64,000 nt of DNA. It comes from an uncultured Gammaproteobacteria bacterium. Its GTDB lineage: Bacteria; Patescibacteriota; Microgenomatia; UBA1406; GWC2-37-13. The notes below the pieces were generated by a model. That model saw only the letters and a list, made by a program, of their open reading frames with translations. It was not told the DNA's origin and ran no database searches. The stretch lies in contig CAYVKV010000003.1 in NCBI GenBank assembly GCA_964452355.1, forward strand, positions 31,152-95,151, written 5' to 3'. The position numbers and the translations under genes were made by a program. Of the stretch, positions 23,548 to 64,000 are shown in pieces. Position 1 is the first letter of the stretch. Every line of letters begins with the position of its first letter.

Positions 23548-24861
23548 ATGGCTCTCGTAAAACAAATCCCAAAAAAAAATATCTTTCTCCTGATCTCGAC
23601 TTCCCTCTTTATTTTAGGGGTAATCTTTTTTTCATTAGCAATCCAAAGATACCAGGTACTTACCTCCTCACGAGCCGAAGATTTCGACCATTACTGTAGG
23701 ATTGATCCAAATGATTGTAAAGCAGGAAATGAATGTTCAAAGGATGGGAGAACCTGTGAAATTAAAACATCAACCTGTGCAAATGGGGTGTATAAAGTAA
23801 ATAAATTTATTTGCGGACCAGGAACGGTCGCGCAGAATCAATACATTTGGAAAGCTCTTGATCAAAATAGTACCGCCTCTTCGTATTGTTCTGGTACTTT
23901 TACCTGTGGACAAGCAACAGCTACCCCAACACCCGGCCAAGCAGGGACAGGCACATGGAACCAATGTGATGCAAGTGGATCAAATAAACCATGCGGGAGC
24001 TGTAGTGTTACAGATATTACAGTCGGTGCCGGTGGTGCTGCTTCAACGACCTTTGGCTGCCAGCTCCTTTGTAATCCTGGTAATTGTCCTTCTGGAACAT
24101 ACCAAATTAATGACACTTCATGGTTTTGGTGCTCTAATAAAGATGGTGCCTCATGCACCCAAGGGAATAGTGACTTGATCGCAAATGTTCATAATACATC
24201 AAGTGTCGGTTCTTTGACTATTAGCGATGCCAGTCCCAATGCTACAAACAATGGCTTCAGTTGGAGCTTTACTATTCCTAATTGGACAGGCTGTGGACGA
24301 GTTCAGACTGACGTTCAAATCAACGCACAAGGCGTGAGCGTAGCTGGTTTAACGAAGAGCTTTGGGTCTGACTGTGCAACAGCACCAACAAACACACCTC
24401 CTCCGGGAACTACGAATACTCCCACAACTCCTCCAAATAATACTAACACGCCGACAACTCCTCCGGGAACTACGAATACTCCCACAACTCCTCCAAATAA
24501 TACTAACACGCCGACAACTCCTCCTACAAATACCCCAACTCATACACCGACAGCAGTCCCACCTACAAGTACGCCAACCAAGACTCCAACAAATACTCCC
24601 ACAAGTACCCCAACAAAGACCGCGACTCCGGTACCAACAAATACTCCCGTTCCAACGAACACTCCGGTACCTACAGCAACTCCGGTACCAACAAACACAC
24701 CGATTCCTCCGACACCAACGACGGTGGTGATCGCACAAGCACCAACTGCGACTCCAACACCAGTGAAGCAACTTACGGTTGACAATCAAAAACCGGGAAT
24801 CACTCCATGGGCACTGATATTGGTACCCATTGGATTGCTGCTCCTTGGACTATTGCTATAA
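23548..24861 (+). CDS. Secreted Cys-rich protein with Thr/Pro-rich linker and conserved hydrophobic C-terminal tail
   Basis: 437 aa. Signal anchor plus IQRYQVLTSSRAED, a ~250 aa region with about 20 Cys, a PTNTP/TPTx linker, and the tail [31 protein letters not shown]. Confidence 0.8.
   Translation: MALVKQIPKKNIFLLISTSLFILGVIFFSLAIQRYQVLTSSRAEDFDHYCRIDPNDCKAGNECSKDGRTCEIKTSTCANGVYKVNKFICGPGTVAQNQYIWKALDQNSTASSYCSGTFTCGQATATPTPGQAGTGTWNQCDASGSNKPCGSCSVTDITVGAGGAASTTFGCQLLCNPGNCPSGTYQINDTSWFWCSNKDGASCTQGNSDLIANVHNTSSVGSLTISDASPNATNNGFSWSFTIPNWTGCGRVQTDVQINAQGVSVAGLTKSFGSDCATAPTNTPPPGTTNTPTTPPNNTNTPTTPPGTTNTPTTPPNNTNTPTTPPTNTPTHTPTAVPPTSTPTKTPTNTPTSTPTKTATPVPTNTPVPTNTPVPTATPVPTNTPIPPTPTTVVIAQAPTATPTPVKQLTVDNQKPGITPWALILVPIGLLLLGLLL
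24401..24520 (+). repeat. Perfect 60-nt tandem duplication inside the Thr/Pro linker
   Basis: 24401-24460 is identical to 24461-24520. It encodes PGTTNTPTTPPNNTNTPTTP twice. Confidence 0.95.
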
Positions 24862-24870
24862 TCTAAATAT

Positions 24871-26001
24871 ATGTCGAGAAAAAGCGTAATGGTCTTGTTC
24901 TCGATACTGCTGATTAGTATTGCAGTGGTCTTGATTTCATTTAGCATCCAAAAATATAGAGTTCTTACCAAGTCTCGGGCCGAAGGACAAAAAACCACTG
25001 AAATGGCTTGTAATACCACTGTCCAACTACTCTCGGATAAATGTTCATCGGGAGTTCTCAATCGAGATGTTTGCGAATTCAAAAATAACAACACAGATAC
25101 TGCACAAGGATGGACAAAATATAAAACACAGGGAGATCCAAAATATGAAAATGTGGACTACTCAAGTATGGGTGCTGGAACTATCAAAATGACTCCCAAT
25201 GGAAGCTCGACGTACTCTGCAGGAGCATATACCCAGGCTTCTGTGACACCAGAAAAAGTGTACTGTGCAAGCTGGCGATGGGGTGCACCTGGAGGACCAG
25301 GCGACCATGGTCGTACTCTCGGGATAGATCCTTATGGTGGCACAGATCCAAACTCTCCAAATGTCATCTGGGGAAACACTCATAGGGGGGCTGGTAGACA
25401 CCTTGATTATGTCCCTCCTGATGTAAATGTGGATATTAAAACAATCGCCAAAAGCACATCGATTACGGTATTTTATAAAGTGGATTACACAGGTAACTCG
25501 AATGATAGCTTGATTTATATCGATGGTATCAACCTCTATGATGAAGGAGTACCGCATTCAGCAATAGCTACGTTGACGCCAACGCCAACTCAGGATATCG
25601 GAAATCCAACACCTACTCTCACTCCTACAACGACGCCATCAACAACTCTCACTGCTACTCCTACTACATCTCCCACTGGTACTCCAATACCAACTCCTAC
25701 TCTCACCAAAACTTCGACACCTTCACCAACTCATACGCTTACCCCAACTTTGACACCAACCCTAACTCCAATACCAACTGCCATTCCAACACAAACTTCT
25801 ACACCCACACCGACAGCGACTCCAATCCCAACCAATACGCCTGTTCCAACAAGTACATTAACCCCAACCAATACGCCTGTTCCAATAAATACTCCAACAC
25901 CAATTACTCAACTTACGGTTGACAATCAAAAACCGGGAATCACTCCATGGACTCTGATATTGGTACCCATTGGATTGTTACTGCTTGGATTGCTACTATA
26001 A
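24871..26001 (+). CDS. Secreted protein (possible beta-sandwich/carbohydrate-binding-like domain) with Thr/Pro linker and the same C-terminal tail
   Basis: 376 aa. Signal anchor plus [14 protein letters not shown], a ~190 aa globular part, a TPTxTPT linker, and the tail [31 protein letters not shown]. Confidence 0.8.
25909..26001 (+). repeat. Dispersed ~93-nt repeat (second copy; the first is at 24769-24861) encoding the shared C-terminal tail
   Basis: The copies are offset by exactly 1140 nt. The first 42 nt are identical (caacttacggttgacaatcaaaaaccgggaatcactccatgg); about 9 mismatches overall by eye. Confidence 0.9.
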
Positions 26002-60428: not shown

Positions 60429-62147
60429 ATGGTGAAGCATACTAAAACTATCAAAACAGATACAAAAGGCGTGAAAATAAAATCTCCTTCTGAAATCACC
60501 ATTGTCGTTGGTTATGCACCGATTGAATCAAAAAAAGGAGTGGCGCTTCTTTCCCAAAATAGACAGTTTCAATACTTCAACGCAAAAACATACATTTATC
60601 CAATGGTTCCGGCATATGCCGCCTCAAACCTCAAAAAACATGGATACAACACCTATTGGATGGACGGAATTGCAGAGGAGAAGACCTTTGACCAATGGTT
60701 TGATGAACTTTCTGCAACCAGTCCTGATTATCTGATGGTTGAGACAAAGTCTCCAATCGTAAAAACACATTGGAAACAGATTAAAGATCTCAAGAAAAAA
60801 CTACCACACCTCAAGCTCATCTGGGTGGGCGATCACATCAGCTATCTTCCAATGGAACTATTTGAAAATAGCCCGGTTGATTATGCCATCACCGGAGGAG
60901 ATTATGATTTTGTCGTGGTGAATTTGCTCAATCATATTTATAAAGGCGAACCACTTGAGAGCGGTGTCTATTGGCGAGAAGACAATAAAGATATCAATGT
61001 TCCAAAAGAACAAAGAAGAGCAAAGAAAATAGAATCAGGAGAAACTATTTATAACTCAGGACCTGCATCGCTCAAACACAAACTTGACGATCTTCCGTTT
61101 GTCGACCGAGATCTCACCAAATGGGAGCTCTATGCATATGACAATGGAAACTACAAATATACCCCCGGAACATATATGTATAGCGGCCGAGACTGTTGGT
61201 GGAATCGTTGCACCTTTTGCGTATGGGACCATACCATAAATCCAATCGGATCATATCGCAGCTTTTCCCCTGAGCGACTCTTCGCAGAAGTCAAACACGT
61301 GGTAGATAACTATGGTATCAAAGAAATATTTGATGATGCAGGAACCATGTTTATCGGTCCAAAACTCAAAAAATTCTGCAATTTGCTTATTGACAGTGGC
61401 TATAACAAAAAAGTGGTGTATGGCTGTAATATGCGATTCAATGCCTTAAATCAAGAATATTACAATCTTATGGGCAAGGCAAACTTCCGATTCATTCTGT
61501 ATGGCATGGAGTCAGGCAACCAAAAAACGCTCGACAAGCTCGACAAGGGCACAAAGGAAGCAGATGCCATAAACGGTCCGAAGATGGCAAGTAAGGCGGG
61601 CCTTGACCCTCACATCACGATCATGTTGGGATATCCATGGGAGACCTATGAAGAAGCGAAAAGAACCATTAATATCGCAAAGTATGCATTCAAAAAAGGG
61701 TACTACGAGACAATGCAGGCAACGATTGTGATTCCGTATCCTGGCACGCCACTGTACAAGGAGTGTAAAGAAAAGGGATGGCTTCTCACCGACGATTATG
61801 ATGATTTTGATATGCGACGACCCGTTATGAAGACGCCCTTTCCTCAAGAGAAGATACTGGAACTCGAACAAGACCTCTATTCAGTATTTATGACTCCGCA
61901 ATATATAACGAGAAAAGTTCTTGAAATTCGCAGCTTTCATGATTTCAAATACCTCTTTTACATGGGATGGAAGCTGATCGGACATCTTCTGGACTTTGAT
62001 CCAAATCAGACCAAAGTAAACTTCTTTTCATTTGCTTTTATCAAAAATGCAGGAAAAGCTTTGTTTGGTCATTTCTTCCGACCAAACACTTCAGTAGATC
62101 GTGAGAAGGATGCAATAAAACTCGAAGAGAGTGCGATGAATTTGTAG
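60429..62147 (+). CDS. B12-binding-domain radical SAM protein (class B-like)
   Basis: 572 aa. N-terminal Rossmann-like B12-binding-type domain (LKLIWVGDHISYLP...YAITGGDYD), then the radical SAM core with GRDCWWNRCTFCVW. Confidence 0.85.
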   Translation: MVKHTKTIKTDTKGVKIKSPSEITIVVGYAPIESKKGVALLSQNRQFQYFNAKTYIYPMVPAYAASNLKKHGYNTYWMDGIAEEKTFDQWFDELSATSPDYLMVETKSPIVKTHWKQIKDLKKKLPHLKLIWVGDHISYLPMELFENSPVDYAITGGDYDFVVVNLLNHIYKGEPLESGVYWREDNKDINVPKEQRRAKKIESGETIYNSGPASLKHKLDDLPFVDRDLTKWELYAYDNGNYKYTPGTYMYSGRDCWWNRCTFCVWDHTINPIGSYRSFSPERLFAEVKHVVDNYGIKEIFDDAGTMFIGPKLKKFCNLLIDSGYNKKVVYGCNMRFNALNQEYYNLMGKANFRFILYGMESGNQKTLDKLDKGTKEADAINGPKMASKAGLDPHITIMLGYPWETYEEAKRTINIAKYAFKKGYYETMQATIVIPYPGTPLYKECKEKGWLLTDDYDDFDMRRPVMKTPFPQEKILELEQDLYSVFMTPQYITRKVLEIRSFHDFKYLFYMGWKLIGHLLDFDPNQTKVNFFSFAFIKNAGKALFGHFFRPNTSVDREKDAIKLEESAMNL

Positions 62148-62371
62148 CTATTTTTGAAATGCTTCAGGGTATTTTTCACGAATCCAATTTTTTTGTTTAT
62201 TTTCTACAAGTTCGCCCAATCCCTGTAAAATATCATGAACATTTACATTTTTTTTGAATAAATGGAATTAAATCAATCAAATACTCTTTCCTACTTGTTA
62301 GTATGAAATCGTACGATATGAATCTGATAACTAAGAAGTTTGATCAGCAAAAGAGCCAAAATTATGGAGTG

Positions 62372-63163
62372 CTAGAGGTGAGTAGAAGGGGACGAGGAGC
62401 TTTGATTGTAAACTGATTCGTAGATGAGTTCAGCAAGTTTTTTATACCCTTCCTTTGATAAATGTACTCCATCAGGTCCGTAATATGCCTTGTTTAGAGA
62501 AGTACTATCATTTGGATCAAAAAAATAGGGATAAGCATTAACAAACATCGTAACGCTCTCTGCTTTTACCCGTATCCATTCATTCAACGTCTGGACTGCA
62601 GTATAGCCCTGATCAGCTGAACAGTTACAGCCCCTATATGGCAATACGGATATTGCAATCACACGCATTTTAGAGTCATTTATCTTCTTATACAGAGCTT
62701 GCAGATTATCCTCAGTAGTTTTGAGAGGTATGCCAGTATTTATATCATTGAATCCTCCAAAAACAATAACGTCATCATATTTTTTTCCAGGTTTTAATAT
62801 GAAAGTATCGAACTGATAATTAAAACCCCGAGCATTTCCTACGCTACTTCCTTCATACCACCCTGTTTGGCCTGAAGGCGAACCATATGTTTCTATGATG
62901 AAACCATTCTTTTTATCTAAATCTGAAACATATGTCCCAGGAACAGAAAGAGAGTCTCCAATTACGGCAACTCTTCGTTCACCTGGGACAAGAGGTTTGA
63001 TACTTTGGGTGTTCGTGTTTTCTCTTTGAGTAAATCGACACGTACCATCAGCACATATAAACGAAGGATTAAGTGTAGTTAATGCTTTGTTTTTGAATAT
63101 GGAAAAAACCGCAATACTACTTACCACAATTAGTGTTGATATTATGAAAATGACTGTCTTCAT
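62372..63163 (-). CDS. Secreted SGNH/GDSL-family hydrolase
   Basis: Signal anchor MKTVIFIISTLIVVSSIAVF. Block I VAVIGDSLS, block III VIVFGGFNDI and block V DGVHLSKEGY. ATG at 63163 is preferred over 63304. Confidence 0.8.
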   Translation of the reverse strand: MKTVIFIISTLIVVSSIAVFSIFKNKALTTLNPSFICADGTCRFTQRENTNTQSIKPLVPGERRVAVIGDSLSVPGTYVSDLDKKNGFIIETYGSPSGQTGWYEGSSVGNARGFNYQFDTFILKPGKKYDDVIVFGGFNDINTGIPLKTTEDNLQALYKKINDSKMRVIAISVLPYRGCNCSADQGYTAVQTLNEWIRVKAESVTMFVNAYPYFFDPNDSTSLNKAYYGPDGVHLSKEGYKKLAELIYESVYNQSSSSPSTHL

Positions 63164-63445
63164 ATTAATAGTCCGCTTGTGAAGTTGCAATAAAACCAAA
63201 CCACGAGATATTATAAATCTTTTTAACAATAACGGAGAAAAATATATCATATCATAGAAACAGCAAATCAATTTAAACAACACTTGGGACTCATATACCT
63301 GCATATGAACTCCTTGGACTTAGAGCTGATCAAATTGAGCAGTTGTGAGTGTGATGTCAATAATATAATAACCCATTTATGTTAGCTTTATAAAGACCAT
63401 TAATTTTTTGATTATTCTGGGGAATCTAATCATCCTGTAGATTCC

Positions 63446-63532
63446 TTGTTTGGTCATTTCTTCCGACCAAACACTTCTGTTGATCGGGAAAAGGATGCGA
63501 TAAAACTCGAAGAGAGTGCGATGAATTTGTGA
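63446..63532 (+). pseudogene. Orphan duplicate of the last 28 codons (plus stop codon) of the radical SAM gene
   Basis: 87 nt aligning to 62061-62147. It encodes the identical LFGHFFRPNTSVDREKDAIKLEESAMNL*. All differences are third-position synonymous changes plus TAG to TGA. No start codon; homology stops at LFGH. Confidence 0.75.
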
Positions 63533-63556
63533 GGAATTTGCTCAATTTAGAATTAT

Positions 63557-64000
63557 CTATTTAGTAATCTTCTTAGATATTTTTTTTACTCTTGCTACCT
63601 TCACTATTACAAGGAATAGCCAAAGTAATAGTGATGCAAAAAAGTATACGATTCCAATTTTTAATCCCATGGGGAAAAAGCTAAATTCGACAATATGTTC
63701 ACCCGATGGAACATACGTTCCCATCATGAACCAGTTTGTTTGAATTGGTTTACTGGAAACCCCATCGATCTTTACCGTCCATCCTGGATAATATGCAGTC
63801 GAGTTTGCAAGATACCCAACGTTTTGAGAGAGTACCTTCGCTCTAATATAGTTTCGCTTATATTCCTCAATTACTACCGTACCTCCGACTGGCTCTACAT
63901 CGTCTCTGAACTGGGCTGGGTTAATAAAAACGTCTCGTGATTCTGCTGAATCAAATTCATTCAGTATATCTGCTGTTTGATTTTTTGAACGAATATTTTT
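63557..64000 (-). CDS. 3' end of a membrane protein gene running off the window (YfhO-like / GT-C C-terminal domain)
   Basis: The minus-strand frame is open from 64000 to the TAG at 63557-63559. Translation ...VVIEEYKRNYIRAKV...ANSTAYYPGWTVKIDGVSSKPIQTNWFMMGTYVPSGEHIVEFSFFPMGLKIGIVYFFASLLLWLF... matches the YYPGW..DG....G.H.v.f.Y.P tail of YfhO-type proteins. Not in the ORF track because there is no start codon in the window. Confidence 0.55.
   Translation of the reverse strand, partial: KNIRSKNQTADILNEFDSAESRDVFINPAQFRDDVEPVGGTVVIEEYKRNYIRAKVLSQNVGYLANSTAYYPGWTVKIDGVSSKPIQTNWFMMGTYVPSGEHIVEFSFFPMGLKIGIVYFFASLLLWLFLVIVKVARVKKISKKITK

Follow-up and report, generated by a model that had tools for sequence, protein, structure and literature searches.

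In a 64,000-nucleotide (nt) stretch of contig CAYVKV010000003.1 (hereafter the window), from an uncultured groundwater bacterium of the Patescibacteriota (Roizmanbacteria), the last 87 nt of a radical SAM gene are present twice, on either side of a 1298-nt insert that carries an SGNH/GDSL hydrolase gene. Bacteria of this group, the Patescibacteria or Candidate Phyla Radiation (CPR), have small genomes with few recognisable mobile elements and cannot be grown alone, and their acquisition of genes is known largely by inference. We argue, with moderate confidence, that the duplicated end is the scar of homology-anchored recombination with an illegitimate second joint ('insertion-duplication'), and that such events have recurred at this hypervariable junction. 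An earlier note on the same DNA had ascribed the duplication to an integrative element that inserted into the 3' end of the gene and supplied a replacement end from a diverged donor.

Results

The duplicated gene end

The two copies form a direct repeat of 85 nt (62061-62145 and 63446-63530), 94% identical and 1385 nt from start to start, which extends to 87 nt per copy when the stop codons are included. Copy A is the end of the gene itself; copy B is an orphan, upstream of which nothing resembling the radical SAM gene was found. Both copies have the same translation, LFGHFFRPNTSVDREKDAIKLEESAMNL, and the five coding differences between them all fall at third codon positions and are all synonymous (5/5), while the stop codons are TAG and TGA respectively. 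Within the window, a 32-nt core of this repeat is found exactly twice; 100 shuffles gave none. The homology of copy B to the gene breaks off at the leucine codon of LFGH, and its other end lies 24 nt from the stop codon of a convergent YfhO-like gene. The earlier note had described the bracketed 1298-nt insert, the shared peptide with synonymous changes, the abrupt break at LFGH and the 24-nt spacing; the open reading frame (ORF) listing, the repeat search and the sequence itself bear all of these out.

Contigs of two public groundwater sequencing runs from one study cover positions 61500-64000 without mismatches, with an even depth of 7.7-10.9 in run X1. One contig of run X2 reaches from the gene body through copy A into the insert, and for each of the junctions (gene body to A to insert, insert to B, and B to YfhO) at least one of the runs has a contig that bridges it. 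We take the structure as real.

Composition of the insert

The insert has a mosaic make-up, with the end of an RmlC-like gene, the start of an AbiEi gene, the SGNH gene and 249 nt for which no relative was found (Table 1). The TAG of copy A directly abuts the RmlC-like gene end, and the full RmlC-like gene in the related contig L118 (221 amino acids; PF00908, E 1.3e-28) abuts a tail copy likewise. Over 36 nt, the AbiEi remnant matches the beginning of the complete gene of contigs L001 and L081 at 92% identity, and that of L003 at 86%. The insert had been read as one minus-strand SGNH gene between non-coding flanks; the gene stands, but the flanks hold remnants of two other genes and are debris of earlier neighbours.

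Beyond the SGNH gene, the window carries a tail-like decamer at which L081 continues directly into its own 36-nt tail copy, t3. Either L081 lost 300 nt between two such decamers or the window gained them. The pair gcaataaaac and gcgataaaac, at 63187 and 63497, is the only candidate for microhomology at the joints. Neither phage nor plasmid matches were found for 63197-63445.

Table 1. Features of the duplicated gene end, the insert and the adjoining genes (positions in the window).
Feature	Position	Strand	Evidence
B12-domain-type radical SAM gene, 572 amino acids, intact	60429..62147	+	PF04055, E 1.2e-13
Tail copy A: in-gene last 28 codons and TAG	62061..62147	+	repeat search, tail alignment
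Perfect hairpin, 9-bp stem, 9-nt loop, at start of tail (second copy 63447-63473)	62062..62088		fold search
RmlC-like (dTDP-4-dehydrorhamnose 3,5-epimerase) C-terminal remnant, last 11 codons, ending YPEAFQK and stop	62148..62182	-	85% over 34 nt to L118 gene end
Segment recently shared with another lineage: unidentified gene fragment, AbiEi remnant, SGNH gene, 30 nt upstream	62171..63196		96.4% identical to L081 2006-982 and to L082
AbiEi-like antitoxin remnant: promoter region and first 12 codons, MKSYDMNLITKK	62280..62338	+	sequence comparison
SGNH/GDSL hydrolase gene, intact, 263 amino acids, N-terminal membrane anchor or signal sequence	62372..63163	-	PF13472 Lipase_GDSL_2, E 1.1e-12
Tail-like decamer gcaataaaac, ending the 30 nt that follow the SGNH gene	63187..63196	+	
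249 nt without relative in any fetched sequence, ending in hairpin with 8-bp stem	63197..63445		sequence comparison
Perfect hairpin, 8-bp stem, 9-nt loop, stopping exactly at edge of copy B	63421-63445		fold search
Tail copy B: orphan 28 codons and TGA, without gene body upstream	63446..63532	+	repeat search
YfhO-like membrane glycosyltransferase gene, 3' end, convergent, running off the window	63557..64000	-	PF09586, E 2.5e-12

Arrays of tail copies in related genomes

In related contigs of Candidatus Roizmanbacteria, the radical SAM gene is followed by two to four tail copies that separate small modules without an integrase, namely two AbiE toxin-antitoxin pairs, an RmlC gene or its remnant, and the SGNH gene. 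The order is the same in L081, an 11.7-kb contig from ENA, and in L082, an independent assembly from a second sample: the radical SAM gene with its own tail (t0), AbiEi (201 amino acids) and AbiEii (256), t1, AbiEii (278) and AbiEi (211) on the other strand, t2, the segment from the RmlC remnant to the SGNH gene, t3, and YfhO. The interval between t2 and t3 also holds a further fragment and an AbiEi remnant. In L003 the two AbiE modules stand in the opposite order and are followed by a decayed tail and other genes. Contigs L118 and L211, the useful finds of a scan of metagenome and genome collections with an unspecific 18-nt degenerate tail pattern (the other matches listed being chance), carry both AbiE modules with t1 and t2, and then a full RmlC gene (L118) or an epimerase gene (L211). 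L211, which belongs to the same metagenome-assembled genome (MAG) as L001, matches L081 at 100% identity through base two of the stop codon of t2, past which the two sequences are unrelated. Between its tail copy and the epimerase gene, L211 has GC-rich nested inverted repeats (2040-2190) that resemble a small palindromic repeat element.

When the tails are aligned, the stop codon and 3' end of each copy match what follows it, giving six junction types (J1-J6). The junction of copy A, in which the tail and its TAG are followed by RmlC (J1), recurs at t2 of both L081 and L118, and that of copy B, in which the tail and its TGA are followed by YfhO (J2), is common to t3 of L081 and L082. The left edges of the orphans vary between events, lying at about -87, -66, -47 and -36 nt from the stop codon. 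No recombinase gene was found in the arrays of L081 (11.7 kb), L003, L118, L211 or L326. The AbiEii genes match their Pfam family with E-values of 8.9e-29 and 2.4e-20; the 201-amino-acid partner matches AbiEi_4 at 22.9 bits, just below the cut-off of 25, and the 211- and 217-amino-acid partners have no Pfam match. Gene order and overlaps are as in AbiE pairs, and the cargo of the relatives, with the remnant in the window, is accordingly predicted to be of the AbiE type IV toxin-antitoxin kind.

Metagenome contigs often stop directly after the radical SAM gene, as is expected of a strain-variable junction bounded by repeats; among those with the radical SAM allele P0006 (L327-L331), 5/6 end within about 130 nt past the stop codon of the gene.

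Divergence of the copies and of the insert

In an orphan drifting as junk, changes would be spread over all codon positions; that all five coding differences between A and B should then be synonymous has a probability of about 0.004-0.013, even allowing for one constrained copy. Copy B and t3 of L081 differ at 4 of 36 nt, again all synonymously (4/4; P 0.001-0.004), and t1 is a still open, clearly diverged tail (NPKTPVDREKNAIRLEESVVNL and stop). Since the differences between A and B are synonymous only, both copies would have been working gene ends while they diverged, and not drifting junk. By their pattern of substitution, the tail copies look like working gene ends of different lineages that were recently brought together, not like old decaying duplicates. 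These diverged copies with purely synonymous differences lend support to that part of the earlier proposal in which an insertion at the 3' end of the gene brought in a replacement end of diverged origin; it is the presence of this second, diverged end that kept the gene intact.

The insert has a history of its own. By Nei-Gojobori estimates of synonymous divergence (dS) between the window and L081, the radical SAM gene stands at 1.05, the ferredoxin gene at 0.90, two GT2 glycosyltransferase genes at 1.6 and 2.0, and the YfhO end at 0.58, whereas the SGNH gene stands at 0.059, with a ratio of nonsynonymous to synonymous divergence (dN/dS) of about 0.5. The non-coding debris beside the SGNH gene is likewise 96% identical to L081. 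The contrast between 0.059 and the 0.58-2.0 of the flanking genes indicates that the 1026-nt segment at 62171-63196 was exchanged long after the lineages split. On the right the segment ends at a tail copy, where the identity between the window and L081 steps from 96% to 86%. The SGNH cassette, for which the earlier note had proposed a search elsewhere, is present near-unchanged in the lineage of L081 and L082 (dS 0.06); no match to it was found in viral contigs, phages or plasmids. As to which copy is native, we lean to the orphan; a mirror-image import from the YfhO side, with B arriving together with YfhO, fits equally.

The same scar at other genes

We compared the last 120 nt of 955 ORFs, from the window and about 95 CPR loci, with their own surroundings at a threshold of at least 35 bits. 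A downstream copy on the same strand was found for 8/955, one of which is a pair of adjacent paralogues; as controls, two upstream placements gave one match each and the downstream opposite strand gave none.

Three other genes carry the same kind of scar. In L326 (4057-7010), which came from a repeat search of that contig and not from the ORF-end scan, an AbiEii/AbiEi pair is flanked on one side by a GT4 gene and on the other by an orphan GT4 C-terminal end whose reading frame is still open. Only 58 nt, around the motif GTPxIVYDVDGLRDSV, are common to both copies, which diverge completely after it; the in-gene end past GLRDSV is unrelated to the orphan, a pattern that we read as heterologous end replacement. 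In L001 (92-1440) and L325 (2-1320), an MNT/HepT pair lies between a gene of 179 amino acids and a 71-nt orphan of its end. L081 (reverse strand, 11619-10950) is without the MNT/HepT pair and is 99.9% identical to L001 downstream; its in-gene end is the same as the L001 orphan but for one mismatch, whereas L001 itself has a different in-gene end, and the two contigs make a filled and empty pair. The middle of the 179-amino-acid gene in L001 has been replaced by strongly diverged sequence, as expected from linear import anchored by one-sided homology. In L038 (951-3650), which is part of a Moraniibacteria MAG, a GT2 gene is followed by an AAA_14/DUF4143 ATPase gene and then by an intact orphan copy of its own last 24 or so codons.

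The four target sequences are unrelated to one another, and the junctions at the three genes other than the radical SAM gene have no common motif. These three genes stand in CPR glycan loci. At the GT4 gene as well as at the radical SAM tail, AbiEii genes overlap the convergent upstream stop codon by 4 nt at the palindrome TTAA (L003 2431-2434, L081 3766-3769, L326 5142-5145).

Hairpins at the breakpoints

Two perfect hairpins meet at the edge of the duplication. The hairpin with the 9-bp stem lies within the first 28 nt of the tail, and the edge of copy B is 1 nt from its stem; the one with the 8-bp stem stops exactly at that edge. Stems of at least 9 bp number eight in the 64-kb window, and two of them are in the tail copies. 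The tail hairpin is found only in the four closest genomes, the clade with the arrays; in L003 one of its base pairs is compensated. The older orphans of the relatives start at its 3' arm, and the orphan of the 179-amino-acid gene in L001 begins exactly at a 6-bp hairpin. L038 and L326 have only 4-bp stems near the edge, and folding energies are unexceptional (z -1.1 to -2.1). At the boundaries, where the earlier note had proposed a check for inverted or direct repeats, lie the perfect hairpins of the tail edge and the tail-like decamer; in our search the sequence of the 8-bp hairpin was not a repeated element.

The SGNH hydrolase and the radical SAM gene

The SGNH protein matches PF13472 at 49.2 bits against a cut-off of 32.9, and its translation has the motifs VIGDSLS, GGFNDIN and PDGVHLS, corresponding to the GDS, GxND and Asp-x-x-His blocks. 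Its relatives in the PDB are GDSL-like acylhydrolases. The family is very small, with three relatives in 5.8 billion proteins by a word-based search. From family and neighbours, the protein is probably a membrane-anchored extracytoplasmic esterase that acts on the cell-surface glycan made by the locus. In L081 the public SGNH call (943-1806, 287 amino acids) starts inside the antisense tail copy t3; the true start is likely the ATG at 1015, as in the window.

The radical SAM gene is conserved in CPR bacteria (4962 relatives at E<=1e-100) and is preceded by the ferredoxin gene and two GT2 glycosyltransferase genes. Its closest relatives are in Candidatus Roizmanbacteria MAGs, with amino acid identities of 95% (L001), 93% (L003) and 89% (L002); the protein is 95% identical to that of L001/L081, and no record identical to it was found. 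We rejected the idea that the tail is unusually conserved at the nucleotide level: from start to end the gene is about 85-90% identical to that of L001, and its tail does not stand out. No recombination breakpoint is visible inside the gene in the window at 60-nt resolution. Positions 61800-64000 gave no Rfam match and no predicted terminator, and promoter-like sites there are at chance level. A chromosomal dif/Xer site or replication terminus was also considered but gained no support: GC skew does not switch here, nothing is conserved past the stop codon as a second Xer arm, and in a complete relative the radical SAM gene is not opposite the start of the record. Elsewhere in the window, two adjacent paralogues without Pfam match (23548-24861 and 24871-26001) share an 87-nt patch, 93% identical, near their 3' ends, which may reflect gene conversion or a recent tandem duplication.

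Discussion

A probable recombination scar

We infer both the recombination pathway and DNA uptake as its route. DNA of a related Roizmanbacterium would have aligned with the resident radical SAM gene, whose conserved sequence supplied the homologous side, and an illegitimate joint inside the final 87 nt of that gene would have closed the other side. The incoming DNA could have been linear, with homology-facilitated illegitimate recombination (HFIR) as the process, or circularised, with entry by a single crossover of the Campbell type ('insertion-duplication'). The gene would then keep a complete end, followed by the foreign RmlC end, the AbiEi start, the SGNH gene and the 249 nt, and a second gene end would be left stranded beside YfhO, its original neighbour; products that leave the host gene intact would be the ones to survive. 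The tail copies would thereafter offer portable homology for more crossovers, in which modules stack and reshuffle to give the up to four tail copies seen in relatives. Such extra homology would explain the swapped order of modules between L003 and L081, the switch between L081 and L211 at a stop codon, and the step in identity from 96% to 86%.

The lack of a recombinase, the variable joints, the unrelated targets, the truncated bystander genes, the donor-type ends and the replaced gene body together point to one-sided homology with an illegitimate joint. At the radical SAM gene, a duplicated stretch of the target flanks the foreign DNA, the copy beside the gene body being the presumed donor-type one, and there is no sequence specificity, the joints being varied at one target and the targets unrelated. 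The differing starts of the orphans and the presence of the same scar at three unrelated genes speak for general recombination and against a site-specific enzyme. Most of the cargo genes are of toxin-antitoxin or defence type, kinds that persist well after insertion.

Several points weigh against this interpretation. The sample of relatives is small, with about five contigs that are informative, drawn from two or three lineages at species level. No alternative joints appear among the contigs of the two groundwater runs, in which graph contigs drop one arm of a bubble and rare variants, excised or empty forms among them, would be invisible. An empty site, with the radical SAM gene directly convergent with the YfhO-like gene, for which the earlier note had proposed a comparison with related genomes, was not found among the relatives searched, nor was any other radical SAM locus with YfhO within 6 kb. 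The YfhO-like 3' end is 84-86% identical in nucleotides to those of L081/L082; beyond these, the closest YfhO relatives with usable context are at most 46% identical, the two that were examined do not adjoin the radical SAM gene, and a closer match is only a partial protein, from a contig of 1.6 kb. A recombinase encoded outside the window might also act in trans. Lastly, breakpoints at rare perfect hairpins are not predicted by a random illegitimate joint, and a structure-specific enzyme could be responsible; the hairpins may also do no more than mark places of breakage or pausing at which illegitimate joints are seeded.

The two routes have precedents. HFIR has reportedly been observed in natural transformation of Acinetobacter baylyi, Streptococcus pneumoniae and Pseudomonas stutzeri (de Vries and Wackernagel 2002; Prudhomme et al. 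2002). As in our case, homology anchors one side while the joint on the other forms without it, and foreign genes are gained without an enzyme encoded by an element; the pair L001/L081, where diverged sequence of the gene body was imported along with the insert, is a further likeness. Unlike here, the laboratory recipient usually loses sequence, whereas a joint upstream of the end of homology duplicates a piece of the recipient; moreover, the present events recur at one junction and build arrays, and pathway and competence are presumed for these uncultured bacteria. Our literature search found nothing pertinent on natural scars of the HFIR type around toxin-antitoxin genes. Campbell-type insertion-duplication likewise leaves a target fragment, the insert and a target fragment as direct repeats, with chimeric copies, but it is mainly a laboratory tool based on plasmids, it would need natural circularisation of chromosomal fragments here, and it leaves the replaced gene middle in L001 unexplained.

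Alternative explanations

The first alternative is a site-specific integrative element that has lost its integrase and is moved in trans by a related element, with the tail repeat as attL and attR and the arrays built by accretion, as in cis-mobilizable elements (CIMEs). Several observations would suit it: direct repeats of a gene 3' end flank the inserts while the gene remains intact, tandem arrays reach three or four copies, the SGNH segment has moved between lineages, and several orphan edges cluster at one hairpin. Similar features are known from accretion of integrative and conjugative elements (ICEs) and CIMEs at the 3' end of fda in Streptococcus thermophilus, and from integrase-bearing islands at the ends of tRNA, tmRNA and protein genes. 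These share with our arrays the replacement gene end, the flanking direct repeats and the tandem multi-copy arrangement, but they have a fixed attachment (att) core and a tyrosine or serine recombinase in at least one element, neither of which was found here. Orphans start about 87, 66, 47 and 36 nt before the stop codon, so that no fixed core or boundary emerges. The absence of integrase and transposase, which the earlier note had recorded, extends from the insert to the related arrays, the 11.7 kb of L081 and the annotated genes of the 64-kb window; no recombinase occurs in the 1298-nt insert or among the ORFs of at least 150 amino acids at 1-34 kb, and the remainder of the window consists of glycan and wall genes. 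The notion of a discrete element, decayed or mobilised in trans, also fits poorly with an insert that is a patchwork of truncated fragments of other genes, with orphan starts that vary, with the same scar at three other genes of unrelated sequence, and with our failure to find a relative among phages, plasmids and viral contigs. We consider it unlikely.

Other cassette systems resemble the arrays in part. Minimal mobile elements of Neisseria and the O-antigen and capsule loci also place alternative cassettes between conserved genes in a surface-glycan context, but they exchange through flanking homologous recombination without duplicating the flank, whereas here a copy is left per event. The pdif modules of Acinetobacter plasmids and integron cassettes are likewise small modules without an integrase, often toxin-antitoxin pairs, between repeated sites; the former use XerC/D sites and the latter attC and IntI, whereas here the repeat is coding sequence of the neighbouring gene, with no attC architecture and no dif-like second arm. 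Integron attC sites are imperfect palindromes of 57-141 nt of the form RYYYAAC...GTTRRRY. An integron cassette was rejected on these grounds: there is no integrase, and only a hairpin of 27 nt, with core-like motifs in reverse order and one mismatch in each.

A second alternative takes the hairpins as its starting point. The tail hairpin would be cut or bound by a nuclease or recombinase, making the gene end a capture site for small cassettes, loosely like an integron platform. The rarity of such stems in the window and their placement at or within 1 nt of the duplication edge speak for it, as do the orphans that start at the 3' arm, the L001 orphan at its own 6-bp hairpin, and the restriction of the tail hairpin to the clade with arrays, with its compensated pair in L003. 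It is weakened by the mere 4-bp stems of L038 and L326, by the ordinary folding energies, and by the position of the hairpin in coding sequence, where it may just reflect the peptide LFGHFFRPN; there is no candidate enzyme, and the hairpin analysis was post hoc. That the hairpin is a recognised capture site, at which a structure-specific nuclease or recombinase, or a process linked to replication, inserts small integrase-less cassettes such as toxin-antitoxin pairs and accessory genes for surface glycans at the ends of CPR genes, strikes us as quite improbable.

The possibility that the orphan is the last piece of a second radical SAM paralogue, left by an ancient tandem duplication, is close to refuted: relatives also have extra tail copies, but nothing gene-like lies upstream of the orphan, purely synonymous differences imply that it has not been decaying for long, and the orphans in relatives differ in length, neighbours and cargo from copy to copy. 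An assembly artefact joining two strain variants is hardly credible. The repeat does form a bubble in k=31 graphs, of which each run keeps only one variant in its contigs, but the 1.3 kb of unique sequence between the copies is at flank depth, every junction is covered by a contig in one or other run, and the independent assemblies L081 and L082, from other samples, have the same layout of SGNH gene, tail and YfhO.

Implications

On our reading, the finding is a natural, recurrent insertion-duplication scar at a hypervariable CPR junction, which resembles HFIR and insertion-duplication but duplicates a piece of the recipient and builds arrays. The association with hairpins merits a wider survey. 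If it holds, it would indicate a specific and so far undescribed capture mechanism; were the capture-site reading true, the duplicated gene end would play the role of att or attC in a new cassette-capture system, in tiny genomes with few classical mobile elements.

There are practical consequences also. Repeats of this kind break metagenome assemblies at their most variable spots, and gene callers can misread the tail repeats, as in the 287-amino-acid SGNH call of L081. On the recombination reading that we favour, the scars are direct sequence evidence of one way in which CPR bacteria acquire genes. Defence-type modules (AbiE, MNT/HepT and an AAA ATPase) and a glycan-modifying esterase would enter at conserved gene ends, leaving the host gene intact, through recombination for which one-sided homology suffices, and the duplicated ends would let the modules stack and reshuffle.

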